DNA of 64,000 nt from Drouetiella hepatica Uher 2000/2452 (GTDB lineage: Bacteria > Cyanobacteriota > Cyanobacteriia > Elainellales > Elainellaceae). Below the pieces are notes generated by a model that was not told the DNA's origin, did not search any database, and saw only the letters and a program-made list of their open reading frames with translations. The stretch lies in the NCBI GenBank assembly GCA_019359505.1, contig JAHHHD010000019.1, forward strand, positions 1 through 64,000, given 5' to 3'. How positions within the stretch are numbered: position 1 is the first letter of the stretch; every line of letters begins with the position of its first letter. Positions 6,402 through 53,191 of the stretch are shown here, piece by piece. The position numbers were made by a program, and so were the translations under genes.

Positions 6402-7679
6402 ATGTTGACAATCTCTGCCGTTGGTGGTGGCAAATGGAAATACTTCCTCTCGATCGCTAAAGAAGAGCTTCTCAGCGAGGAAGAGATAGAAGGGTACTGG
6501 CTTGGGGCTGGGGCTGAGAAGATTGGGCTTAAAGGAAACGTCAAAAAGCAGCATTTTAAGAACGTTTTTGAGGGGTTTGCACCCAGAAACAAGCAAATAA
6601 AGCTTGTTAGGAATGCAGGTGGTGCTGACAGACAGGGCGGCTGGGACTTAGTTTTCTCTGCTCCAAAATCGGTAAGCGTTGCCTTTAGTCAGCTCTCAGA
6701 TAAAGTGCCAGAAAAAAAGACAATTCTTGAGATCCATCACAGAGCTTTAGAGAAGGGAATTGATTTTCTAACTGAGCAGACCTACACAAGACGTTTTGAA
6801 ACTGGGGTAGGGAAAAGCGAGGAAAGAGCGGGACTTGTCATTGCTGCCTTTACTCACCAAACCTCAAGACTCAATGACCCACTACTTCACACCCATGCCC
6901 TCTTTATCAATCTTTGCTCACGCGCGGATGGCTCTACAGGCTCAATTAACAGCCGTCAACTGTATGTACTCCAAAAAGAAGCCGGAACGTTATACAGGGC
7001 AGAATTAGCCCTCGGGCTAGAGCATCATTTAGGGCTTCGCCTGCACCGTAAAGAGAGCTGGTTTGAGATTGACGGTATCCCGGATGAAGCCATAGATTTC
7101 TTCTCAAAGCGTCGAAATGAGATAGAAGCACGGCTTAATAAGCTTGGCTTTCACTCAGCTCAGGCTAAAGAGTACGCAAACTTTGATACTCGGAAAGCCA
7201 AGGGATACAAGAGCAGGCATGAGCTTTTCTTGGACTGGCAGGAACAGGGAAAGGCTTTAGGACTCTCAGAAGGGCTTATTCTTGACCTGTTTGGGAAAGA
7301 GCAGATCAGACGCGATCGCACTGAACAAATTCAAATCGTTGTGGATGAGGTCTCTAAGCGTCTGGCTCAGAGCAATAAACCGTTCACTAACCGGGATGTT
7401 TATCGCCTGGTCGCAGAAGAGTCACAATGCAGAGGGGTAGGGCTTGAACTTGCCTGCTCGATCGCTAAAGGCTATCTGGCTTCTGATGATGTCCAGATGA
7501 TAAAAGAATTCCAGAAGAGCCAACTTTACGAGAGTAAGCGTCAAGAGCCTCTAATCCAAGCATCTCAAAATATTGATACGGATAGGGATAGAGATTACAT
7601 CTCACATCGACCCATCATAGAAATTCCAAGGGCTTCAAACATGGGTCAAATCGAGCATACTCTTATCATTCAACGGTAG
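6402..7679 (+). CDS. MOBF / TrwC-type conjugative relaxase domain protein (no helicase domain)
   Basis: N-terminal MLTISAV...GYWLGAGAEKIGLKG and the histidine triad HQTSRLNDPLLHTHALF. Confidence 0.85.
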   Translation: MLTISAVGGGKWKYFLSIAKEELLSEEEIEGYWLGAGAEKIGLKGNVKKQHFKNVFEGFAPRNKQIKLVRNAGGADRQGGWDLVFSAPKSVSVAFSQLSDKVPEKKTILEIHHRALEKGIDFLTEQTYTRRFETGVGKSEERAGLVIAAFTHQTSRLNDPLLHTHALFINLCSRADGSTGSINSRQLYVLQKEAGTLYRAELALGLEHHLGLRLHRKESWFEIDGIPDEAIDFFSKRRNEIEARLNKLGFHSAQAKEYANFDTRKAKGYKSRHELFLDWQEQGKALGLSEGLILDLFGKEQIRRDRTEQIQIVVDEVSKRLAQSNKPFTNRDVYRLVAEESQCRGVGLELACSIAKGYLASDDVQMIKEFQKSQLYESKRQEPLIQASQNIDTDRDRDYISHRPIIEIPRASNMGQIEHTLIIQR

Positions 7680-7684
7680 GAGAT

Positions 7685-42332: not shown

Positions 42333-44027
42333 TTATTCTATTGATAATTTGTCTCTATCAATTTCATCAAACACATGGCTCTGGAGATCAGTATCTAAAT
42401 CGTTTTCATCAAAATCATTGCTCTTGAGAGCTGCAAAGAATTCAGTTAAGTACTCTGCATAGTCGAATTTATATTCAATACTTTTCTTATTTAAGTCTTT
42501 CAAACGATTGTTAAGGGAATTCGTCCTGAAAGACTCATATAGTGTAGTTTCTCTAAAACGAGTAACGGCAGCGTATAAATGAGAATACTCACGTAGTGCT
42601 CTTTTCAGGTTATAAGCTATTGGTGTAGCGTTTTCTTTCAAAAACCTCAAAGTACTTAGCCTCATAACAGCAATGGTAAAGTCAGGATGTATATAATACA
42701 ATAAAGTTCTGATCGCTGTTTCAAAGTAAGATGCTGAGTAAAAATACAACATCTCTATTTCATATAAAATCTCATATATCTGAAGAGTATCGGCAGTTTG
42801 AAGTTTTTTAGTTTCTCGACTAGCCAGATCATAAAGCAACCTCCCAAATAGAGTATAAAAATATGGGAAACCTCCATACTCTGTATCTACACCTTCTGTA
42901 ATTCTTTTATAAGCTTCCTCATAATAAGCTTTAGCAATATCCAGGTCTCCTTTATATTGAGCTATGAGTCCTTCTGTAAAAGGATTTTCAAACCCATACA
43001 TTCTTCTCAAATCATCATAATAATCTAGCTCCTTACGTATAGATAATTCTTGTGCTTCTGCAAAAAAGAACATTCCATATCGATCCGCCATTAGGGCGGA
43101 TATCTTCAATTGGTCAAAATGCTCAAAAAGAATACTCGGAGGCTTAGGTGCATATATGTAAAATAATCTATATGATTTTGCTAAGTAATTAACAGCGGCA
43201 CTAAAACGCATTTTCCGTATGAGAAACTTTCCAAATTGGAAGCAAACCATTCTTTCCTGATCGTTCCCAAAAGGGAGATCTAAATGTTGGTATATCTCAT
43301 AAGTTTTATTAAAGACCTCCATTAGTTCTGGTTGAGTAACCTCCGGTTCGACTTTTTTTAGCTCATTAAGGGCATCTGAAAAATTATTTAGAACTTGTCG
43401 ATAACTCAAATCTTCGTCTGTATCCAACTGAGCTAAAAAAAGATATGCGTTTGCTCTGATAAGTCCAAGAGTAGGGATATCTTCTGATGGGCTTATGTGC
43501 TTCAAATGTAGTATAGCTAAAGACAGAATTTTCCTAGCTGTATAATATTTTTTCCTGATTTTATAGTACAGTCCAAGGTAGCTCAGGCAAACGAGATATT
43601 GGATGGAATTTTTAAGTCCACCTTTGACATAAATACGTATGCCTTGAGTGCATAACTGTTTTGCTTCCTCATTATGCTCTCTTGCAAAGTAAAGCCCAAT
43701 TAATTTTGTCGATAGATGGTTGAAACTTTGTAAATAGAAAGGCTCATTTTTTTGAAGCAGTGATAACCCCTTCTTCAAATAATGAACTGCGTCATCGTCT
43801 CTGTCATAGTCTTCATAATGGCAGCCTAAGAGATGCCCCAAGAATGAAACTTCTAAATTAGTTAAAAGGTGACTAAAATCTGAGAAATAATAATTTATGT
43901 CTTCTATAAAAGGAGAAATATGTAAGAAAGCAAACCGAGCCTGGCTCGTCCATAATCTCTTAGGCACCTGCGAACATTTACGTACAAATGCCTTTATCGC
44001 AAGTTTGTACACTTTATCATTACTCAT
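42333..44027 (-). CDS. TPR-like helical-repeat protein, the probable sensor half of a split STAND NTPase
   Basis: 8-nt overlap with the upstream NB-ARC gene. Repeated amphipathic helix pairs occur throughout (e.g. AKAYYEEAYKRITEG), in 564 aa. Confidence 0.65.
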   Translation of the reverse strand: MSNDKVYKLAIKAFVRKCSQVPKRLWTSQARFAFLHISPFIEDINYYFSDFSHLLTNLEVSFLGHLLGCHYEDYDRDDDAVHYLKKGLSLLQKNEPFYLQSFNHLSTKLIGLYFAREHNEEAKQLCTQGIRIYVKGGLKNSIQYLVCLSYLGLYYKIRKKYYTARKILSLAILHLKHISPSEDIPTLGLIRANAYLFLAQLDTDEDLSYRQVLNNFSDALNELKKVEPEVTQPELMEVFNKTYEIYQHLDLPFGNDQERMVCFQFGKFLIRKMRFSAAVNYLAKSYRLFYIYAPKPPSILFEHFDQLKISALMADRYGMFFFAEAQELSIRKELDYYDDLRRMYGFENPFTEGLIAQYKGDLDIAKAYYEEAYKRITEGVDTEYGGFPYFYTLFGRLLYDLASRETKKLQTADTLQIYEILYEIEMLYFYSASYFETAIRTLLYYIHPDFTIAVMRLSTLRFLKENATPIAYNLKRALREYSHLYAAVTRFRETTLYESFRTNSLNNRLKDLNKKSIEYKFDYAEYLTEFFAALKSNDFDENDLDTDLQSHVFDEIDRDKLSIE

Positions 44028-45372
44028 AATCTTGATTAGACACTTTATTTCGGAAAAACTCGCGAAGTAATGGATGAAGCCGATAAGTTAAATCTTTAAC
44101 TGGTTTTAGTAAATTCAAGCTAATAAATTTACTCCTACTTTTATCAAGATTAACAAGTTCATCAGTGTTTATTGCAGAATTTTCTTCTAGTTCGATCTGC
44201 TTCATTAATTCTACAACTGTCCAAGCAATATCTGTTCGGGGTGGAAGATGCCCTATAAAGATGGCAATCTCTTGGGTCTCTGAATCAAGAATCTTCCAAG
44301 TTAATTCAAAAGCAGCATCGAGACCTCTACGTGCAGTAAGAGACCAATTAGGATTTTGCTGGAAATCTCCCTGAAAAGCTTCATGATGAAGGGCTTCTTT
44401 CCTGGAGGCAAATTCTTTTAATTGGGATAGAAGAAGTGAGGTTGGAATGCCAGACTCAATCGCTAAATATCTCCCTGCCAACTCAATCCCTAATGGCAGG
44501 TCTCCAAGAAATTCACACAGTTCTTGTGAGAGTGGATCGTCATAGAAAATGGTTTCATTTTCTGACAACCATTTAAGAAGTTCTATTGAATCAATTCGGT
44601 CAAGCACATCTAAATCAAAAAATATAAATGGATCTCTAAGTTTCAAACGAGTTGTAACTACAACCTTAAAACGATTATCACTAAATAATTCAAGAAAAGA
44701 CTTAATTTCTTCGTATTTTTCAATATCATCAAAAATGATAAGAACATTACCCTTAGTCCAATTATCTATACAAAACTGAACCTGATCAGAAGTGCTCAGA
44801 GGAATATTTAGCTTAAGCTTATTTTTAGAGAAAGATATAATCTGGGAAGCGATGCTTAGTTGATTTGAATCATCTGTTCTTACAGAAATCCAGCAAATAC
44901 CCCCAGGATAGTGCTGAAAGTATTTTTTGGCATATTGGATAGAAAACTCAGTTTTGCCAACTCCGCCCATACCGGATACTGCAACCCTCATCCTCCCTGG
45001 CTTTTGAAGTTCGGCGTGTAATTTCTTAAGTCTGTCGTCTCGTCCAAAGAAACCACCATCTCGAACCCCGCTTTCCAAAACGTTATGTGGTGGTTCAGAA
45101 AAGGAATGCTCAGGCTCTACTTCCTGTTCATCGCCCCAGTCCACTATAGACTCCCAATCTGTAATACCTAATTTTTCGCAGATAGCCAGAAATTTCTTAG
45201 CATCAACAGGCTCTCCCTTGAAAAACTGCCTTACTGCGTCCTTACGGGCATTTGGAGAGTCAGTTATGAAAGCTTCTAGGGTAGGGTACAACCTCTCTCG
45301 AAGACGAATGACAAAATCTAGCTTGCCCTTGCGAACAGAATACTTAGTCCTGTGGCGAGTCTGCTTGGTCAT
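44020..45372 (-). CDS. NB-ARC (STAND) NTPase with an N-terminal HTH-like domain
   Basis: Walker A VSGMGGVGKTEF, Walker B VLIIFDDIE, VVVTTR, and the GLPLAL-equivalent GDLPLGIELAGRYL. An XRE-like segment lies at the N-terminus. Confidence 0.85.
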   Translation of the reverse strand: MTKQTRHRTKYSVRKGKLDFVIRLRERLYPTLEAFITDSPNARKDAVRQFFKGEPVDAKKFLAICEKLGITDWESIVDWGDEQEVEPEHSFSEPPHNVLESGVRDGGFFGRDDRLKKLHAELQKPGRMRVAVSGMGGVGKTEFSIQYAKKYFQHYPGGICWISVRTDDSNQLSIASQIISFSKNKLKLNIPLSTSDQVQFCIDNWTKGNVLIIFDDIEKYEEIKSFLELFSDNRFKVVVTTRLKLRDPFIFFDLDVLDRIDSIELLKWLSENETIFYDDPLSQELCEFLGDLPLGIELAGRYLAIESGIPTSLLLSQLKEFASRKEALHHEAFQGDFQQNPNWSLTARRGLDAAFELTWKILDSETQEIAIFIGHLPPRTDIAWTVVELMKQIELEENSAINTDELVNLDKSRSKFISLNLLKPVKDLTYRLHPLLREFFRNKVSNQDYE

Positions 45373-45848
45373 GTTATGAGTGCCAACTCTTTTTAAGAGT
45401 ATACATTAGGTTTTTTGCTTAAATCCGACATAAATCCGACTTAGCTGGAATCTCCGCCTTAAAACAGTTTTCAGTCAGGTATTTTGCAAATTTACCAATG
45501 TTACTCTTCCTTTTAGTGAAGGAGCCTTTGGTAATACCAAAGACCTATCCACCAACCTAAGTCACTCCCAACCGCCCAAACCAACCCGTTAGCCTGGAGA
45601 GCGATCGCACATCCTGGCACAGGGTTCTTGTAACCAAAAATCAAGGAGGTGAGCAGCCCACTATGCATAACGGTCACTTTGACCAACCAGGGGAAAGGAA
45701 ACCATAGAGAGAGAAGAGATTAGGGAAAGAGAGATTCAAAACGCAAGGCTAGATATGTTTTGGCGACCAGATCTAGCGTTAAAACGTTGAAAAACCTCCT
45801 CTCTTTCCCTAAAAAAGCTTAAACCACATTTATTAGGAGAATTGTAAG

Positions 45849-46118
45849 ATGCCACCTACCAAACTGGCAATTGCTGGAGCAGACAAGCCTCAAAGGTACT
45901 CAGCCTTCTCTGAATTTACCTTTAACCAGAAGATGCTTTTAGCCGAGCTTATTCTGGAAAGCCTTAGAACTGGGCAGTCAACTGAAGAAAGCTTAGAGAC
46001 TCTTGATCCGGATGCAACCCTTTCGGAAGAAGGGGAAACGTTTATCAATCTTCATGCAGACGAACCTATTGATGGAGCGATCGGAGTTGTCCAGGCTCTT
46101 ATACTTTCACTCCGCTAG
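45849..46118 (+). CDS. Hypothetical small protein (89 aa)
   Basis: ORF only. Weak similarity to the next ORF (LLLAELILESLRTG vs LLLLEATARKIRLG). Confidence 0.35.
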   Translation: MPPTKLAIAGADKPQRYSAFSEFTFNQKMLLAELILESLRTGQSTEESLETLDPDATLSEEGETFINLHADEPIDGAIGVVQALILSLR

Positions 46119-46163
46119 TCACAACACTAAAAGCAAACCATATCCACAAGGAAGAACTGATTC

Positions 46164-46472
46164 ATGACTACACCCACAATGACCACTCGACAGCCCTCAG
46201 CCGTGCAAGAGATCGTGTCGGCTGCTGACCAGGCAAGCAAACTAATTGAAAGTCTACCTGCCTGCTCAAGTCTGACTAAAGACCGAAAACTTCTTCTATT
46301 AGAAGCAACGGCAAGAAAAATACGCCTGGGGCTATCGCTTGAAGAAGCCCTTAAGGGGGTTGAACCAATGGCTGAATATGTGCCTGTTGAAGTTGAAAGT
46401 CTGATATTTCCTGCTCAGACCGATTCAAATACGATGCTTGGGCTTCTTTTTGCCCTCGTATTATCTATCTAA
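46164..46472 (+). CDS. Hypothetical small protein (102 aa)
   Basis: ORF only. Confidence 0.35.
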   Translation: MTTPTMTTRQPSAVQEIVSAADQASKLIESLPACSSLTKDRKLLLLEATARKIRLGLSLEEALKGVEPMAEYVPVEVESLIFPAQTDSNTMLGLLFALVLSI

Positions 46473-46588
46473 TTGCCACTAGGATAAAACGCTTAAAAAA
46501 GGAGCCAAGACTTCCATAAGCCCCTTGGCTCCCTCAACTTAACTGTTAAACCATACATAGCTCTTCCAAGCAAAGGACAGTCACTCAA

Positions 46589-46837
46589 ATGAACAATATC
46601 GACCTAAGAAAACGCATGGTTCTGTTTGTTTTAGGCATGGGCTTAATCGGTGGAGCATTAGGCTATGCCGTAGGCTGTAAAGATGGTGCTTCTTGCAAAC
46701 TTAATCCAACATTACGCTTAGTAGCCATAGCTCAAGGAGCTGGTGCTGGCTGCGGTGCCGCAATTGGTGCAAGCCTGCCTGCCTTACTCTCCTCAAATGC
46801 TTCTGAATCAAATAGGAGAAAAAAAGGCACTAAATGA
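46589..46837 (+). CDS. Small Gly/Ala-rich membrane protein (82 aa)
   Basis: MVLFVLGMGLIGGALGYAVG and AQGAGAGCGAAIGASLPALL hydrophobic segments. Confidence 0.5.
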   Translation: MNNIDLRKRMVLFVLGMGLIGGALGYAVGCKDGASCKLNPTLRLVAIAQGAGAGCGAAIGASLPALLSSNASESNRRKKGTK

Positions 46838-46942
46838 TACCTCTTAAGCGATAAAGGCAATCGCCAGGTCATCACACATGATCTTTTTACTCAATCTAGT
46901 TCTGTAGATACAGCACTCCAAAAAAACTAGAAAGATAACAAA

Positions 46943-47254
46943 GCAAAGGACTGTCACTCAAATGATCGATATCGACCAAAGAAAATGAATAATTCTATTC
47001 ATTTTAGTTACAGGGCTAGTAGGTGCGTCGTTATTCTTAGCCATACGCTGCAAAAATAGTGCCTCTTGCAAACATAATCCAACATCTTGTGCAAGCCTTA
47101 ATGCCTTAAAACCTGCAAAGGCTTCTGAACTAAATAGGAGAAGGAAAAAGGCAGTAGATGATATCTCTTAAGCGATAGCGGAAGCTTATCGCCAGGTCAT
47201 CACATACGGTCTTTTCTGCTCAATTTAGTGCTGTATATACAGCACTCCAAAAAA
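46943..47254 (+). pseudogene. Decayed tandem duplicate of the 46570-46942 unit
   Basis: Copy 2 starts with GCAAAGGACTGTCACTCAAATGATCGATATCGACC, against GCAAAGGACAGTCACTCAAATGAACAATATCGACC in copy 1. It reaches a TGA after 8 codons, has internal deletions, and its 3' flank is conserved through ACAGCACTCCAAAAAAA. Confidence 0.6.
47227..47246. promoter_or_regulatory. Perfect 20-bp palindrome AGTGCTGTATATACAGCACT upstream of MOB module 2; oriT or operator candidate
   Basis: Exact 10+10 inverted repeat, 8 nt before the RHH gene ATG. An imperfect copy lies at 46898-46917. Confidence 0.3.
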
Positions 47255-47614
47255 ATGAGAAGCAAGCAGATAGAAACTATTAGTTTCAAACTAGATGAGC
47301 AAACAACCGACAAGCTTAAAGCAATAGCTCTTCAAAGCAACATATCTCATCACGGAGCAGCAAGGGCAATTATTATAACTGCCCTTTGCTCCTCGCCGGC
47401 TGAAGCTAGCACAACTTCTCTTCCAGGTGCATCAGGTGAACTAAAAGCTGACCTGTCTTACCTCAACTCGCACTTAGAGCAGATAACCTCTGCTCTAGCC
47501 GCTCAGAGTAAATTCTCAAGCCTTCTAGCAATCTTGCTACTTGTGAATATGGGGGTAGCTTCCGAGGAAGCAGAAAATGCCGTTTCAGAGCTTCTGGAGG
47601 CAAGCAGATGGTAG
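47255..47614 (+). CDS. Relaxosome accessory RHH protein (module 2)
   Basis: MRSKQIETISFKLDEQTTDKLKAIALQSNISHHGAARAIIITAL parallels the module-1 RHH protein. The ATG at 47255 is preferred over the GTG at 47228. The gene overlaps the relaxase start. Confidence 0.55.
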   Translation: MRSKQIETISFKLDEQTTDKLKAIALQSNISHHGAARAIIITALCSSPAEASTTSLPGASGELKADLSYLNSHLEQITSALAAQSKFSSLLAILLLVNMGVASEEAENAVSELLEASRW

Positions 47615-49493
47615 CGTCCGTGAGTATTATAAGTGGCTCTAGCGGTGATTACTTCACAAGAGCAATTGTCTATTACAAAAGTGAGGATCGAGAACCTGAA
47701 AAGGGTGAGCTTCAAGGTGAGTTTTATGGCTCCTTTGCAAAGAGTCTTGAGCTAGATAGGCAGGCGATCGCACACAAGGATAGACGCTTAAGTTCGCTAA
47801 TGCAGGGGATAGATCCGACAACGGGGAAGGTGCTGAGAAAAGGTGGCAAAACGGTTGATGAAAGTGGAGTTGAGAAGAAAAAGAATTCGTCGGTTGGAGC
47901 AATTGATATTACCTTTTCAGCTCCAAAAGATGTGTCAATTGCAGCCTTTTTAGCCCCGGAGAAGGAACGGCTTCAAATTGAGAAAGCTCATAACGAATCC
48001 GTTAAAGCTGCCCTTACTCATCTTGAAGAAAACTATGCCTTTCTGAGAACAGCTTCAGGCAATGAGAAGGCTCAAATTGTAGCAGGCATCTTTGCACATA
48101 CAACTTCTCGTGATGGAGATCCACAATTACACTCTCATGGCGTAGTGCTTAATTCCTGCCAGGGCAAGGAGTCAGGGAAAACTGGGGCACTTGATGGCAT
48201 GGCTATTTTACAAGCTCAGCACAGGCTTGGAGAAATCTATCGGAACGAATTACAGCACAAGCTAGAAAATTTAGGCTACATAACGCGACAAGTCTCTCTC
48301 CAGAGAGGCTACAGCTTCGAGATTACTAATATCGGGCTTACCCAGGAAGTAAGAGACCATTTTTCAAAACGAAGCGAAGCGATCGATAAAGAAGTAAGTG
48401 AGCATCCTGAAAAGTCACGCTCAAAAGCTGCTGTAGATACACGAAAAAAAAAGAGGAGAAAGTTGATAGAGCTGCTTGCTTTAAGCGGTGGAAAGCTGAA
48501 GGACTAGCTTTAGGGCTTGATCTAGAAAAGCTTAAATTAAAAGAGAAATCTTTAACTCAAGGACAAAAAGAAACTACTAAAGGAGAACTTGAAAAGAATG
48601 TTCTAAGAACACTTGTAAAAAAAGAAGCTCTTAAAGCTTTTACCGAGAAAGAGGTTTCATCAGCAGTCTTGAGACAAAGTAAGGGGCAATTTTCAAGTAA
48701 AGAATGTGAACAAATATCTAAAGAAATAATCAACAAGAATCTTCGAGAGATTGGGAGTGATTTAGAAAGATGGAAAAGACAAGACAAGGAAAAGCCACTT
48801 CACCTACGTATTAAAACAAATAAATCTTACACGTTAAGGAGAATGAGCAATGAGATTCAAAAAAGGCTTGGAACAGTTGAGCAGCAAAGACTTTCAGATA
48901 TCTATTCAAAGAGAGAAGAGCTTAAAGCTAAAAGCCTTGAGAAGCAAACCCTTGAAGGCAATAAGGCACGTCTATACACATTAAATAAAGAAGGAAGAGA
49001 AAAAGTAAAAGACTCTGCATATGCAATAGTGCGATCGAACTTTGCGCCCTGGCTTCAAAAGCTTTTACCAGAAGGGCAAGCTTTAAGTTATGAGTATCGA
49101 CAAAAACAGTTTGAGAAATCAAAACAAAAATTTGCTAAAAAGCAAAAACGATTTGAGAAAAGACAAAAACAGTTCAAAAGAAAAATGTTCTTTGCCTACA
49201 TGAAAGGGCATATCTCAAGGTCAAAGTATATACAAATTCGAGACGGCAAGAAACAAGAAAAATCAAAGATTTTGATACAAGTAAAATACGCAACGCACAA
49301 CATGAACAAAAAACAACGTGATTACTTACTCCGAAAACTTGATAAAGCCCAAACAAAAGTTGAAGAGAAAAAGCTGTCAAGCAGATTTTCAACTACTCCG
49401 CAAAAAGAACCAGTTAAGGAGAGAGAAAAAGAGAAGCCCAAAGAGCAGCCGAAAGAAAAGCAAAAAGAAAAGTCAAAAGAACGTGATAGGTAA
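47608..49493 (+). CDS. MOBF/TrwC-type relaxase (module 2) interrupted at an A9 run; the zero frame stops at 48507 and the -1 frame continues to 49493
   Basis: HTTSRDGDPQLHSHGVVLN histidine triad. After the A9 run (48444-48452), the -1 frame reads KKEEKVDRAACFKRWKAEGLALGLDLEKL. This parallels relaxase 1 RKAKGYKSRHELFLDWQEQGKALGLSEGL. The -1 frame is open from 48447 through the track ORF 48669-49493. Confidence 0.75.
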
Positions 49494-49499
49494 CTAACA

Positions 49500-50192
49500 A
49501 TGCAAACACGTAGTGAAACAAAAAGACGACTTAAGAAAACACTGGGAAGCCTTCTATGTCTGGCATTTGGAGTATATACAGGAAGAGTAATAGGGTTATT
49601 TATCGGAAGATTAGTTTTTTACACCTTACAGGCACATTCAACGTATGGGTTCTTTACCTGGATTGTGTCAGTGGCAATAGGAGTTAGAACTGAAGAGTTA
49701 ACAGCAGAAAGCTTAGCTCAAGCAATGAGTAGCTTTGAAAACTTTTTTCGCCTACTTGGAATGGTTTTCTTTGGAGAAGCGGGGGTAAGAGTTCATTACT
49801 GGTACTACTATTTAAGAGGCATTAAAACTTACCATGCATTTACGTTTGATAGCTTTAGAAAGCACTTTTTCCATATTGATAACGCCTATGTTGATATGCT
49901 CTGGGCTTTAATCTATGTGGTAAGCCTTGATACGGTGCGGGGTGTTTTGTGCTTTGTAGCAGGAAACGCTGTGTATGGTTACTTTTCTGGCATCTTGGGG
50001 TTTTACGCTATATTTCCAACACTTTTTGCAATCATACTAATTTTTCAGTGGGCAACTGAAACTGTAAAAAACGTTCTTCATCCACATCGAATTGAGTGGG
50101 AAATTCAAGATAGTTCGCTCATTAAAGCAGTGCTTTCAAAACGAGAGGAAGAGAACCTTTTAGGCAGAGGTCGAGAAGAGGAGGATGAATAA
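49500..50192 (+). CDS. Polytopic membrane protein, the likely detached TM domain of the downstream T4CP
   Basis: 4-5 hydrophobic helices and an 8-nt overlap with the T4CP gene. T4CP 1 carries an equivalent TM region fused to it. Confidence 0.55.
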   Translation: MQTRSETKRRLKKTLGSLLCLAFGVYTGRVIGLFIGRLVFYTLQAHSTYGFFTWIVSVAIGVRTEELTAESLAQAMSSFENFFRLLGMVFFGEAGVRVHYWYYYLRGIKTYHAFTFDSFRKHFFHIDNAYVDMLWALIYVVSLDTVRGVLCFVAGNAVYGYFSGILGFYAIFPTLFAIILIFQWATETVKNVLHPHRIEWEIQDSSLIKAVLSKREEENLLGRGREEEDE

Positions 50193-51924
50193 AAAGCTCT
50201 GCTGGAAGCTTCTTAAAGTCGCTAAAACGTTACTTAAAGCACTCTCAAAGATTATTTACAGCATTTTAGCTGACATGAGGCGAGATTCTTCGCTCGAATA
50301 TCGGCATGGTCATTCAATCATTGATACTGCCTGGGATATTCATCGTGAGAATCAAACGGAACTTGTTGCTAGTAAGGATCGCCAGATTAAGCAAAGTGAG
50401 GCAGCTCAAAAAGGCATACTGGCGGATCATCAATCGCCGGCTCTTCCAGCAGATTACGATCGAGAAAAGTACGTTCCCTTTGGACTAGGTTTTCAAAAGA
50501 TTGATGAGACTGAGGGGCATTTCCTTATAAGCGGCGTTACAGGCTCTGGTAAGGGCTTACTGACCCAAATTACAATGGCTCACGTCTTATCTCTTCAGAA
50601 AAGGCGAGTAGTCATTATCGACCCTAAGAACGATACACTAGGAATTCTTCATGGGATGAATATCCCTTATAAGTATTTTAATATTGCATCTACTCGTGGG
50701 ATTGCCTGGGATATTGCAAAAGATGCTGGAAGCTACACCAAACTTCCCCAAATAGCAGCAATTCTTCTTCCTGCTGATGAAAAAGCTACTGATAATTTTT
50801 GGCTCTTTGCATCTCGTGCCTTGCTTGTTGCAATCATGCGAGTCTTTATCTATCTCTTTCAAGATGAATGGGCATTCCATGACGTTGTTAAGGCTGCAAC
50901 ATTTCTTTCAAGAGAAGAGCTAATTACGTTCCTTAAGCAATGCCCTGGAAATGAGGCAATTATTCTTTCACTCTTTAGTGAAGAAGTTGAAAAGGCTTCA
51001 GCAAACGTGATGCTTGAAGTATTTACAAAGCTTGAAAGGCTAAACACTGCTGCGGTTCATAGTCAGCAGGCGACAGAAAAAATTAGCTTAAAAGAATTCA
51101 TGCAGCAAGATGATGGAGTGCTTGTTATTGGAATGGATCTAACTGAGAAAGAAGCTCATATGCCAATGATTCATGCAATCTTTAGGCGGCTGTGTGATTT
51201 TATCTTAGCCCTACCTGAGTACCCGGATGTTAAAACTTGGTTTTTTATAGATGAGGTAATTTTTCTAGGCTACTTGCCTGGGCTATTAGATTTGATGGTT
51301 TTTGCACGTTCTAAAAATGCCCTTGTCACTTTAGCTATTCAAGGGATGGAAGGGATGGAAGAGATTTACAAAAAAAACTTCTCAGAAATTATTGTTGAGA
51401 TGTGTAGATACAAAGCAATTTTACGCTCAACTGCGAGGACTGCTAGATGGGTCTCATCACTTTTTGGAAAAGTTGAAGTATACGATTCAACATCAAGCGA
51501 TAATTTTGGCTCTCAAGGCGTATCAGGTGGAAGCCAGGTGCGAAAAGAAGGCAGAGAAAAGTTCTACGATTCAACTTTTTTGGAGCTTCCTTTTCCGAGC
51601 AAGGCAAAAAAATTAGGATTAACGGGATTTTTTATCACGCCTGATAAGGCAGAAACAAGGAAAATTTCAAGCGAAAGGCTTGAAGCCTTAATGCCTAAAA
51701 AAGTAGAAGTTGCAAAGGAGGAATCTATAGACAATGAACAGCAATTACTTGTGCCGTGGAGTGAAAAAGAGAAGGCGAGATTTATCTATGGAGATAGAGA
51801 AAAGGAGGAGGTAACAATTGATGATTTACTAGATGAGCAGGTAGTTGAATATTTCTTAAATTTCACTGAAGAATTCGCAAGGAAGCTAAAACAAAAAGAT
51901 GAGCATGAAAAAACAGAAGATTGA
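50185..51924 (+). CDS. Type IV coupling protein ATPase domain (TraG/VirD4 family), lacking an N-terminal TM region
   Basis: Walker A ISGVTGSGKG, Walker B WFFIDEV, and a GAGGAGG RBS. Confidence 0.85.
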   Translation: MNKKLCWKLLKVAKTLLKALSKIIYSILADMRRDSSLEYRHGHSIIDTAWDIHRENQTELVASKDRQIKQSEAAQKGILADHQSPALPADYDREKYVPFGLGFQKIDETEGHFLISGVTGSGKGLLTQITMAHVLSLQKRRVVIIDPKNDTLGILHGMNIPYKYFNIASTRGIAWDIAKDAGSYTKLPQIAAILLPADEKATDNFWLFASRALLVAIMRVFIYLFQDEWAFHDVVKAATFLSREELITFLKQCPGNEAIILSLFSEEVEKASANVMLEVFTKLERLNTAAVHSQQATEKISLKEFMQQDDGVLVIGMDLTEKEAHMPMIHAIFRRLCDFILALPEYPDVKTWFFIDEVIFLGYLPGLLDLMVFARSKNALVTLAIQGMEGMEEIYKKNFSEIIVEMCRYKAILRSTARTARWVSSLFGKVEVYDSTSSDNFGSQGVSGGSQVRKEGREKFYDSTFLELPFPSKAKKLGLTGFFITPDKAETRKISSERLEALMPKKVEVAKEESIDNEQQLLVPWSEKEKARFIYGDREKEEVTIDDLLDEQVVEYFLNFTEEFARKLKQKDEHEKTED

Positions 51925-52051
51925 AATAGCTCTTAAAGCTATGTTGCCTGATGTGTTACTTACGAAAAAACAGATTGAGGAAATCACAGGCTTATCTGAC
52001 AACACTGTAGTTACAACCATTAATCCACTGAAGAATTTGCAAGGAAGCTAG
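51899..52051 (+). pseudogene. Truncated duplicate (50 codons) of the 5' end of the 52061 gene, created by a 162-bp tandem duplication
   Basis: MSMKKQKIEIALKAMLPDVLLTKKQIEEITGLSDNTVVTT here, against MSMKKQKTAIEIEAAFTALPLETLLTKKQIEEITGLSDNTVVTT in the full gene. It overlaps the T4CP 3' end in another frame. Confidence 0.45.
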
Positions 52052-52060
52052 AGCAAAAAG

Positions 52061-52639
52061 ATGAGCATGAAAAAACAGAAGACGGCAATTGAAATTGAAG
52101 CGGCTTTTACAGCCCTGCCTCTTGAAACTTTACTCACCAAAAAACAGATTGAGGAAATCACAGGCTTATCTGACAACACTGTAGTCACAACACTTGCTAA
52201 ATGCGGAATCCCGACTAGCAGCAGAACCTACTCAGTGGCTCTTTTACTAGAAAGGTTTGTGCCTGCAAGAAAAATCTTAGATGACGGAGGAACATATGAA
52301 AAAGTAGAGCAGTTTGTAAAAACCCTATCGCCTCTTGAAAGTGCAGAAGATGAAGAAGATGGAGGGGCGTTAATTGACGCATTAGATCAGCTTGAAGAAG
52401 ATGCTGCACAGGTTCTCTACGGTGCAATAGAAGAGAGAGCTGAGAGGCTAGTAGGGTATATGCCCAAAATGCTTATGAAGGCTGTCTCAGGGGCAATTCT
52501 TAAGGGTGCAGGCAGACAAAAGTTTAAGACTGAACTAATGCAAATACTAAAAGTTGAAAACTCAACTGGACAGCAAAAACGATTAGCTAATCCAGAAGAA
52601 GCACAGAAGCTTTTACCGTCTGAGACCCAAGACTCATAA
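52061..52639 (+). CDS. Hypothetical protein with a probable N-terminal HTH (192 aa)
   Basis: TKKQIEEITGLSDNTVVTTLAKCGIP resembles an HTH. The C-terminal half is acidic. Confidence 0.5.
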   Translation: MSMKKQKTAIEIEAAFTALPLETLLTKKQIEEITGLSDNTVVTTLAKCGIPTSSRTYSVALLLERFVPARKILDDGGTYEKVEQFVKTLSPLESAEDEEDGGALIDALDQLEEDAAQVLYGAIEERAERLVGYMPKMLMKAVSGAILKGAGRQKFKTELMQILKVENSTGQQKRLANPEEAQKLLPSETQDS

Positions 52640-52663: not shown

Positions 52664-52876
52664 ATGAAACGCTTAGTAACAACGTGCGGATTAGTAGCTT
52701 CACTACTCCTAACTTCTTGCTCAAAACCAGAGCCAAAAACAGTGTATTTAGCCTTAGAGACGCAGACTGAGAAACAAAGAGAGCTTAATCAAGACATAAC
52801 TCACGAGCTAGCTAGAAAAATGCACTCAGGGGACTTTGTAATAGTTGATCAGTTAGTTGGAGGAAGCGAGGAATGA
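52664..52876 (+). CDS. Short lipoprotein, a truncated paralog of the 53192 gene
   Basis: Lipobox LLLTSC. KTVYLALETQTEKQ parallels QTVYVALESNTSEE in the 194-aa protein. Confidence 0.5.
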   Translation: MKRLVTTCGLVASLLLTSCSKPEPKTVYLALETQTEKQRELNQDITHELARKMHSGDFVIVDQLVGGSEE

Positions 52877-53191
52877 GCGAGAGTGCAACTGCTGCTAATG
52901 ATGAAGCTGGAAGTCTAGAGCTTCTTGATTCAATGCTCTTTGAGGGGACGACAACTCTCATAGAGGGAAGACTTAAACAGTTTATTTTGCATACACCTCA
53001 ATATTTTATCGGGTGCCGTGGTGAGGCTTCTCAATAATCCTAAAATCCGTGCTGAGATCCTTAAAAAAGTTGCAATCAGCGTGAAAAGTGAGCCGATCGC
53101 TCTCGAAGCTAAAACCGTTCGGCTTGAGAGCATGAATCTTTTGCCTGAGTCCAAGTCCGAAGAATAGTTATTTCAAGAGGTTTTTTCCATT

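Follow-up and report, generated by a model that had tools for sequence, protein, structure and literature searches.

Slippery runs of A are a well-known means of recoding in the transposases of insertion sequences (IS), in dnaX and in some secretion-system genes. Here, we describe a putative case in a conjugative relaxase gene, relaxase 2, of the cyanobacterium Drouetiella hepatica Uher 2000/2452. The gene lies in a 64,000-nt stretch of DNA (positions 1 to 64,000 of contig JAHHHD010000019.1, hereafter the window), which is part of a 114.6-kb contig of a metagenome-assembled genome. An earlier note, made from the letters of the window, had seen the gene interrupted at an A_AAA_AAG heptamer and had offered recoding, a pseudogene or a one-base miscall as explanations. 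On balance, we favour the view that relaxase 2 is a live gene decoded via a selectively maintained recoding site. Recoding is the best fit of these three options, since the run of nine A and a G (A9G) and the two-frame layout recur in a relative diverged by about 10%, with strong purifying selection on the -1 frame. From sequence alone, slippage of the ribosome, slippage of RNA polymerase and phase variation in the DNA would look alike.

Several described systems resemble this locus in part. In the IS3 family (IS911, IS150), an A-rich slip site fuses the short N-terminal product of a mobile-element DNA-processing enzyme to a -1 open reading frame (ORF), giving OrfA and OrfAB. Relaxase 2 has the same layout and the same A_AAA_AAG, and its A9 is that of IS elements with transcriptional slippage (Baranov et al. 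2005, PMC1088944). Unlike these transposases, which are of the DDE type, its product is an HUH-type MOBF conjugative relaxase. Moreover, the shift falls inside a folded domain (in its last helix) and not between modules, the tail of the short product is not conserved, and no stimulatory Shine-Dalgarno (SD) sequence or structure was found.

The heptamer is also identical to that of E. coli dnaX, where -1 programmed ribosomal frameshifting (PRF) gives tau and gamma, and the A9 run is identical to that of Thermus thermophilus dnaX, which uses transcriptional slippage. The polarity is reversed, however: the shifted product is the longer one in relaxase 2 and the shorter one in dnaX. High efficiency in E. 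coli requires an upstream SD and a downstream hairpin (PMC5389563), neither of which was seen at relaxase 2. In vitro, the dnaX heptamer gives 84% frameshifting, falling to 20% without the hairpin and to 50% without the SD (PMC5389563). The label ‘dnaX-type’ that the site had been given is thus apt for the heptamer, but it does not extend to an SD-like element, a significant downstream structure or the order of the two products.

Other users of A-run slippage include, besides T. thermophilus dnaX (A9), Shigella mxiE (A9) (PMC1088944) and C. rodentium tssM1 (A11) (PMC4256274), the latter two depending on it for their full-length product. As in tssM1 and mxiE, an apparent early interruption at poly-A is found in a gene with single-ORF homologues, and an mRNA with one added A would restore a secretion or transfer protein. 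In tssM1 both variants and their ratio were shown to be needed (PMC4256274), whereas the short form of relaxase 2 carries no sign of selection. The locus likewise recalls the ‘pseudo-pseudogenes’ (Baranov et al. 2005, PMC1088944), in which a break at nine A, with one-ORF homologues elsewhere, would be mended by slippage. Those cases are mostly known from a single genome and are of uncertain value; here the break is present in two lineages, over a synonymous divergence (dS) of about 0.3 and with purifying selection downstream.

Finally, recoding on a conjugative element has a precedent in FseA (msi172-msi171) of ICEMlSymR7A, where +1 PRF at 4-13% limits a protein needed for transfer (PMC4755241). 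Unlike relaxase 2, FseA is a transcriptional activator, and its +1 shift takes place at UUUC with no A-run. In full-text searches of the literature, no report was found of a conjugative relaxase made by frameshifting or slippage.

The candidate slip site and the relaxase that spans it

The gene parts and candidate signals are as follows, all on the plus strand.

47608-48453 (+): relaxase 2, zero-frame part, codons 1-282, from the ORF list and from Pfam TrwC, NCBIfam MobF and 1omh alignments
48444-48452 (+): A9 homopolymer, a candidate RNA polymerase slippage site and replication-slippage hot spot
48447-48453 (+): A_AAA_AAG heptamer, in the zero frame by codon phase, a candidate -1 ribosomal frameshift site
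48454-48507 (+): zero-frame tail RRKLIELLALSGGKLKD and TAG, which end the 299-aa product; not conserved
48453-49493 (+): relaxase 2, -1 continuation, 346 codons and a stop, with the last relaxase-domain helix and a conserved, helical, Lys-rich C-terminal domain

Read from the ATG at 47608, the codons are CGA (48442-48444), AAA, AAA and AAG (48451-48453), so that the A9 run is followed by G at 48453 and a heptamer of the form X_XXY_YYZ stands in the zero frame. The frame transition is placed at 48444-48453 by tblastn. Past the heptamer, the zero frame holds 17 sense codons and reaches TAG at 48505-48507, for a product of 299 aa. In the -1 frame, no stop occurs between 48411 and the one at 49491-49493, and the two frames joined at the run encode a fusion of 628 aa. 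On all of these points (position and phase of the heptamer, zero-frame stop, extent of the -1 frame, and a fusion with a Lys-rich tail) the earlier note was right. It had also likened the -1 frame to relaxase 1, the second relaxase of the window (6402-7679), whose alignment does cross the site and covers fused residues 97-304.

The run is the only one of at least 9 A/T in the 64 kb; dinucleotide shuffles give 4.6 A9/T9. The heptamer by itself is unremarkable, as in-frame A_AAA_AAG occurs three times in intact genes of the window (once in relaxase 1 and twice in the ORF at 10011), and it is the comparison with a close relative, described below, that gives the site its weight. CGA AAA AAA AAA GAG minus one base gives the heptamer in exactly the observed phase. 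Between the two gene parts, no promoter-like or terminator-like site was found.

By its domain matches, the fusion belongs to the MOBF/TrwC-type relaxases: it scores 210 bits with Pfam TrwC (PF08751; cutoff 25), over fused residues 14-298, and 195 bits with NCBIfam MobF (NF041492; cutoff 100). The structures of TrwC and TraI are matched at E 2e-23 to 5e-19. Both a near-invariant candidate catalytic tyrosine, Y15, and the histidine triad with its surroundings (H164, S167, R168, D171, P172, H175 and H177, in HTTSRDGDPQLHSH, which aligns with HETSRERDPQLHTH of TrwC) are conserved in the family alignment and lie upstream of the shift. A type IV coupling protein, T4CP2 (50185-51924), is encoded nearby, with the same synteny in five related loci (L002, L003, L004, L006 and L011). 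No helicase Pfam domain of the TrwC/TraI architecture was found in the fusion; relaxase 2 is a relaxase-domain member of the family and not a relaxase-helicase.

The homology runs across the shift. The MobF profile is matched up to position 294 of 299 with the fusion and up to 281 with the 299-aa product, and TIGR02686 up to 285 of 286 and 266, respectively. TrwC N293 (1omh) aligns up to fused residue 306, with the shift point at TrwC K268, and the -1 segment EEKVDRAACFKRWKAEGLALGLDL aligns with TrwC 269-292, the final stretch of the relaxase domain as crystallised. In the 299-aa product, as predicted from the sequence, the relaxase domain is missing its last conserved helix, and the C-terminal domain is absent altogether. 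A literature search on TrwC N275 found nothing.

The 330 aa that follow the relaxase domain fall into a very small family: an exhaustive HMMER search through 1.84 billion proteins gave 20 representatives. This part is predicted to be helical, and its AlphaFold2 (AF2) model is of moderate confidence (pLDDT 68). Foldseek of the model against the PDB gave no match below E 0.1, only a faint winged-helix-like resemblance that is not usable. The domain (48453-49493; P0001-P0018) has no Pfam model; it carries the motifs LYTLN and GKISRxQY and a basic tail that ends in R-D/E-R. Relaxase 1 (425 aa) does not have this Lys-rich domain, which relaxase 2 shares with its relatives.

Conservation of the site and of the -1 frame

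Run-length conservation among homologues is the accepted criterion for purposeful use of a slippery run (PMC1088944). One close relative was available for this comparison, a Logan contig of 2,046 nt (L009) from run SRR14578319, which was found because one protein encoded on it clusters with the 274-aa ORF at 90% identity. It is 89-93% identical in nucleotides to window positions 48162-50200, and an in-frame indel of 3 nt sets the two apart 40 nt before the run. It carries the identical ...GATACACGAAAAAAAAAGAG... in the same phase, with the heptamer at its positions 283-289. Its zero frame reads CGA AAA AAA AAG AGC CAA AGG TAG, that is, a tail SQR* with the stop four codons past the heptamer. 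Its -1 frame (EPKVDRAACFKRWKAEG...) is open for 347 codons, to the normal end. In other words, the run, its length of A9 and the two-frame layout are common to both available lineages (a small sample, n=2), and these come from independent data sets. A private, recent one-base deletion (a ‘pseudo-pseudogene’), first inferred from uninterrupted orthologues at 65% identity, was abandoned on finding this contig.

The sequence on either side of the run is unevenly conserved. The 31 nt on its 5' side are identical in the two lineages. On the 3' side (window 48454-48468, L009 290-304), six differences fall within 12 nt after GAG, against a background of about 7%; these 12 nt are GAG AAA GTT GAT in the window and CCA AAG GTA GAC in L009, and one change of this cluster makes the early zero-frame TAG of L009.

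The ratios of nonsynonymous to synonymous divergence (dN/dS) between the window and L009, obtained by the Nei-Gojobori method, are listed here.

N-terminal part, zero frame: dS 0.39, dN 0.056, dN/dS 0.14
C-terminal part, -1 frame: dS 0.27, dN 0.028, dN/dS 0.10
Downstream 230-aa gene: dN/dS 0.26

In the C-terminal part, 69 differences are distributed over the codon positions as 14:8:47 (chi-square p=5e-9), and the excess of synonymous changes in the -1 frame has p=3e-17. Over the first 130 codons past the site, the dN/dS of the -1 frame is 0.13 (p=1e-6), and that of the other two frames is about 1.5. These 130 codons extend to the earliest -1-frame start codon common to both lineages; the first canonical start in the window, TTG at 48669, is TTA in L009. 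Simulated neutrally at the observed level of substitution, an ORF of 347 codons stays open in 0.7-2.4% of trials. The branch leading to the window is 0.19-0.20 long in the C-terminal part and 0.20-0.23 in the N-terminal part in a relative-rate test against the orthologues, which alone shows only that the C-terminal part has not accelerated and would fit a recent event as well as a compensated one.

The -1 frame is thus under strong purifying selection right from the site. A dN/dS of 0.10-0.13 that starts there argues that the -1 frame has been translated, from the slip site on, throughout the divergence of the two lineages. Such translation would in turn exclude a shared dead gene and disfavour two separately initiated proteins.

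More distant orthologues, given with their identity to the fusion or to its C-terminal part, are the following.

P0001: 627 aa, 65%, single ORF
P0002: 622 aa, 65%, single ORF
P0003: 598 aa, 44%, single ORF
P0136: 625 aa, about 41%, single ORF
P0005-P0018: 563-631 aa, lower identity to the fusion, single ORF

At the homologous site, the orthologous loci read as follows.

L001, L002, L004: CGG CAA AAG AAA GAG
L003: CGC AAA GCA AAA GAG
L011: CGC CAA GAA AAG GAG
L006: AGG GAA AAA AAG GAT

The fusion aligns without gaps through the site with orthologues of 598-627 aa, so that one added base or a -1 shift restores exact collinearity. Moreover, the family-invariant residues R288, R294, W295, K296 and E298 all lie within the -1 segment. 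Because of this gapless alignment and these residues, the fusion is read here as the ancestral form of the protein. Every other family member that was assessable is a single polypeptide.

Two candidate split relatives did not hold. The 406-aa protein P0004 had been considered but was dropped, since it is cut by the end of its contig. In L010 (P0137), a 38%-identical relative, a scaffold gap of 10 N (562-571) lies exactly at the homologous Lys-rich site (...GAAAC NNNNNNNNNN GGGCTAAAAAAGAGGAG...), and the frame relation is undefined. Its gene looks split for a technical reason, which calls for caution in automated frameshift surveys. The locus of P0004, L006, is 39-40% identical and has an in-frame A_AAA_AAG at the same position, where its zero frame continues; judging from this sequence, the Lys-rich motif TRxKK readily yields the heptamer without a frame break.

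Searches for further relatives added little. Neither blastn against PLSDB plasmids nor protein patterns and a site pattern (7-12 bases replacing the run) in GTDB species genomes gave a match, and IMG/VR held no relatives. JGI metagenome contigs gave only two orthologues at 65%. Word-indexed protein searches with the downstream gene of L009 and with the N-terminal part found no further close relatives, and among the 20 representatives from the HMMER search with the C-terminal part there was no other interpretable split member.

Proposed decoding of relaxase 2 and rival explanations

Standard decoding of relaxase 2 would give a truncated 299-aa relaxase domain. If RNA polymerase added one A on the A9 run, an A10 mRNA would be made and, from it, the 628-aa relaxase. 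Alternatively or additionally, the ribosome may slip by -1 on A_AAA_AAG, and both routes would yield the identical protein ...DTRKKK-EEKVDRAACFKRWK.... We lean slightly towards transcriptional slippage as the larger contributor, because the run is kept at 9 A (three above the six of the heptamer) and no ribosomal stimulators are visible. Nine A is the length at which transcriptional slippage, and counter-selection of runs, become evident in many bacteria (PMC1088944). Only a fraction of expression would then be likely to give transfer-competent relaxase, which would throttle the transfer module. That slippage occurs in Drouetiella, and at what level and for what purpose, we infer from the sequence.

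The role of the short product is a separate matter. Two isoforms had been envisaged in the earlier note, but a functional short form is not indicated: the zero-frame tails of the two lineages (17 aa and 3 aa) are completely different, and the dN/dS of this frame, about 1.5, suggests no constraint. More probably than as a selected isoform, the short product arises as a by-product or serves as an attenuation device, although both forms might be required, by analogy with TssM. A stricter version, in which full-length relaxase arises only via programmed slippage and A9G sets a low ratio of full-length to truncated (nickase-only or inactive) protein as a throttle on conjugation, is offered tentatively and is rather doubtful.

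Several points weigh against a maintained recoding site. Its carriers are two lineages only, with no further relatives found, and the sequencing platform of SRR14578319 is unknown. Every orthologue at 65% identity or less (40-65%) is uninterrupted and lacks the A9 run, and the site therefore appears young and clade-specific; what the earlier note had named as counter-evidence, an unbroken ORF in orthologues that do not have the motif, thus applies to these more distant genes, and the heptamer together with the two-frame organisation is conserved in L009 only. No SD-like sequence was found in the 20 nt upstream, a spacing of 10-14 nt included. In both lineages, the downstream RNA folds no better than shuffles (z -0.8 to +1.3), and the closest downstream hairpin begins 17 nt past the heptamer, not at the 5-9 nt of a stimulatory hairpin or pseudoknot. 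Upstream, an imperfect hairpin whose end lies 5 nt from the run is weak, with z 0.06 for the window and -1.85 for L009. Furthermore, the proneness of A_AAA_AAG to shift depends on a cell with only tRNA-Lys(UUU) (PMC5009743). Lastly, a functional in-frame A10 that had lost one A independently in both samples would give the same low dN/dS.

This last point leads to the main rival, DNA-level switching or recurrent mutation at a hot spot, which we regard as unlikely but as the one to be taken most seriously. Here, the functional state would be an in-frame A10 (CGA AAA AAA AAA GAG), which replication slippage would turn into A9, the off state, and back. The two populations sampled would both be off, for example if loss of the relaxase is cheap or favoured in the host, and selection on the C-terminal part would act via transferring copies in the on-state. 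Loss of one base from A10 gives the exact sequence and phase, consistent with the gapless alignment of the orthologues, and switching accounts for the low dN/dS equally well as recoding. At this length, a homopolymer is hypermutable, and there are descriptions of heterogeneous populations (PMC1088944). The second relaxase and coupling-protein module on the contig (6402-9664) could relax selection, and rearrangement scars are present in the same module as relaxase 2 (51864-52191 and 52864-53164). However, both independent lineages have the same off length, A9, and neither has A10 or A11; the tract polymorphism of a phase-variable locus is thus not seen between them. A fitter A10 should return fast in a hypermutable tract, yet A9 is the consensus across dS ~0.3. 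Moreover, by analogy with other bacteria, A9 should be leaky at the RNA level, far above the frequency of replication slippage.

Two further explanations are both very improbable. The first is a sequencing or assembly artefact, with a true A10 and an ordinary in-frame relaxase in both samples. The break does coincide with the window's longest homopolymer, as is classic for indel miscalls, one library underlies all assemblies of the window, and the platform of the L009 run is not known. This library (run SRR12347860) was sequenced as Illumina NovaSeq 2x150 and assembled with metaSPAdes (PMC8354539), and its Logan assembly (L008) is 100% identical to the window over 44206-51994 (7,789 nt), A9 included. 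The 299-aa product is identical in NCBI and JGI. A different run from a different lineage again has A9, and no other gene of the syntenic block is frame-broken, the A8 in T4CP2 (51370) and all A7 runs being in frame. A simple miscall of A9, as entertained in the earlier note, is unlikely because the data are Illumina, the two assemblies of SRR12347860 agree and A9 recurs in the second run, SRR14578319.

The second is a split gene, in which the 299-aa relaxase domain would be one product and a C-terminal protein with its own start another. This is how NCBI annotates the locus, as MBW4660266.1 (299 aa, ‘relaxase domain-containing protein’) and MBW4660267.1 (274 aa, ‘hypothetical protein’), and two separate ORFs are called by the NCBI, JGI and Logan gene callers alike. 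For TrwC, complementation in trans between separated domains has been reported. Against a split stands the annotated start, TTG 48669, which is not conserved. In addition, the 130 codons before the first shared start, family-invariant W295 among them, are under purifying selection in the -1 frame, and all the other assessable members of the family are unsplit.

A plain pseudogene, frameshifted since the ancestor of the window and L009 and no longer translated in its C-terminal part, is the least probable of all: uninterrupted orthologues, the lack of stimulatory signals and decay-like scars nearby would fit it, but an untranslated part should evolve neutrally, and here dN/dS is 0.10 for the 347 codons as a whole and 0.13 for the first 130 of them, the third-position bias is strong, the ORF rarely survives in neutral simulations and the window branch is not longer in the C-terminal than in the N-terminal part.

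The transfer module and what recoding would mean

Relaxase 2 is part of a module with a conserved order: a 128-aa ORF, the relaxase, a 230-aa protein and the coupling protein. Its other members are the following.

47228-47614 (+): 128-aa ORF with its stop codon in overlap with the start of relaxase 2 (ATGGTAG); syntenic orthologues in L001, L002 and L004 at 68-74% identity
49500-50192 (+): conserved hydrophobic protein of 230 aa, between relaxase and coupling protein; dN/dS against L009 as listed above
50185-51924 (+): type IV coupling protein 2 (T4CP2), TrwB/VirD4-like and intact; Pfam TrwB_AAD_bind 1e-38, 78% identity to L002 and L004

T4CP2 is the partner of relaxase 2. The 128-aa ORF has no Pfam or NCBIfam match and is possibly a relaxosome accessory protein.

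The downstream end of the module is rearranged. At 51864-52191, the T4CP2 3' end and the beginning of the gene that follows are present as a diverged tandem duplication, with a period of about 162-174 nt and 82-86% identity between the copies. It leaves a 50-aa N-terminal stub ORF (51899-52051), named ‘transcriptional antiterminator’ by JGI, before an intact 192-aa gene (52061-52639). Further on, between genes for 70 and 194 aa, a relic at 52864-53164 corresponds to the C-terminal half of a 179-aa gene of the type found in L003, spread over two frames (tblastn 59-62% identity), and resembles a recombination or mosaic scar in transfer module 2.

In all, the contig has two MOBF relaxase and coupling-protein modules (6402-9664 and 47608-51924), a layout shared by the metagenome contig L003 (1-2316 and 10001-14173). 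Just upstream of the relaxase-2 module lies a divergent STAND-type gene (NB-ARC/TPR or NACHT/WD40; 42333-45372, minus strand), an association kept in every related locus (L001, L002, L003 and L011). The window also carries cargo that resembles a Tc toxin complex (10011-17978 and 21496-31434), here on a cyanobacterial mobile element. It comprises a TcB/TcC-like protein of 2655 aa with SpvB and TcdB-middle domains and a TcA-like protein of 3312 aa. Between these genes (19060-20247 and 20397-21434), a GH5 protein that also has a peptidoglycan-binding domain and a protein resembling linocin/encapsulin are encoded.

In the public annotation, relaxase 2 is split in two, and relaxase-based mobility typing, or pipelines that treat a frameshift as a dead gene, would misjudge such elements. 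If confirmed, the site would be a clean, young example of recoding, which arose after the split at 65% identity and was kept over dS ~0.3; its young origin and its retention would therefore make it useful for studying how recoding sites originate. If the stricter version were true, relaxase 2 would be the first conjugative relaxase with a transfer-competent form made only by programmed slippage, and the cyanobacterial element with its Tc-toxin cargo would carry a built-in throttle on conjugation. More generally, a confirmed recoding site in relaxase 2 would mean that conjugation is also controlled after transcription or in translation.

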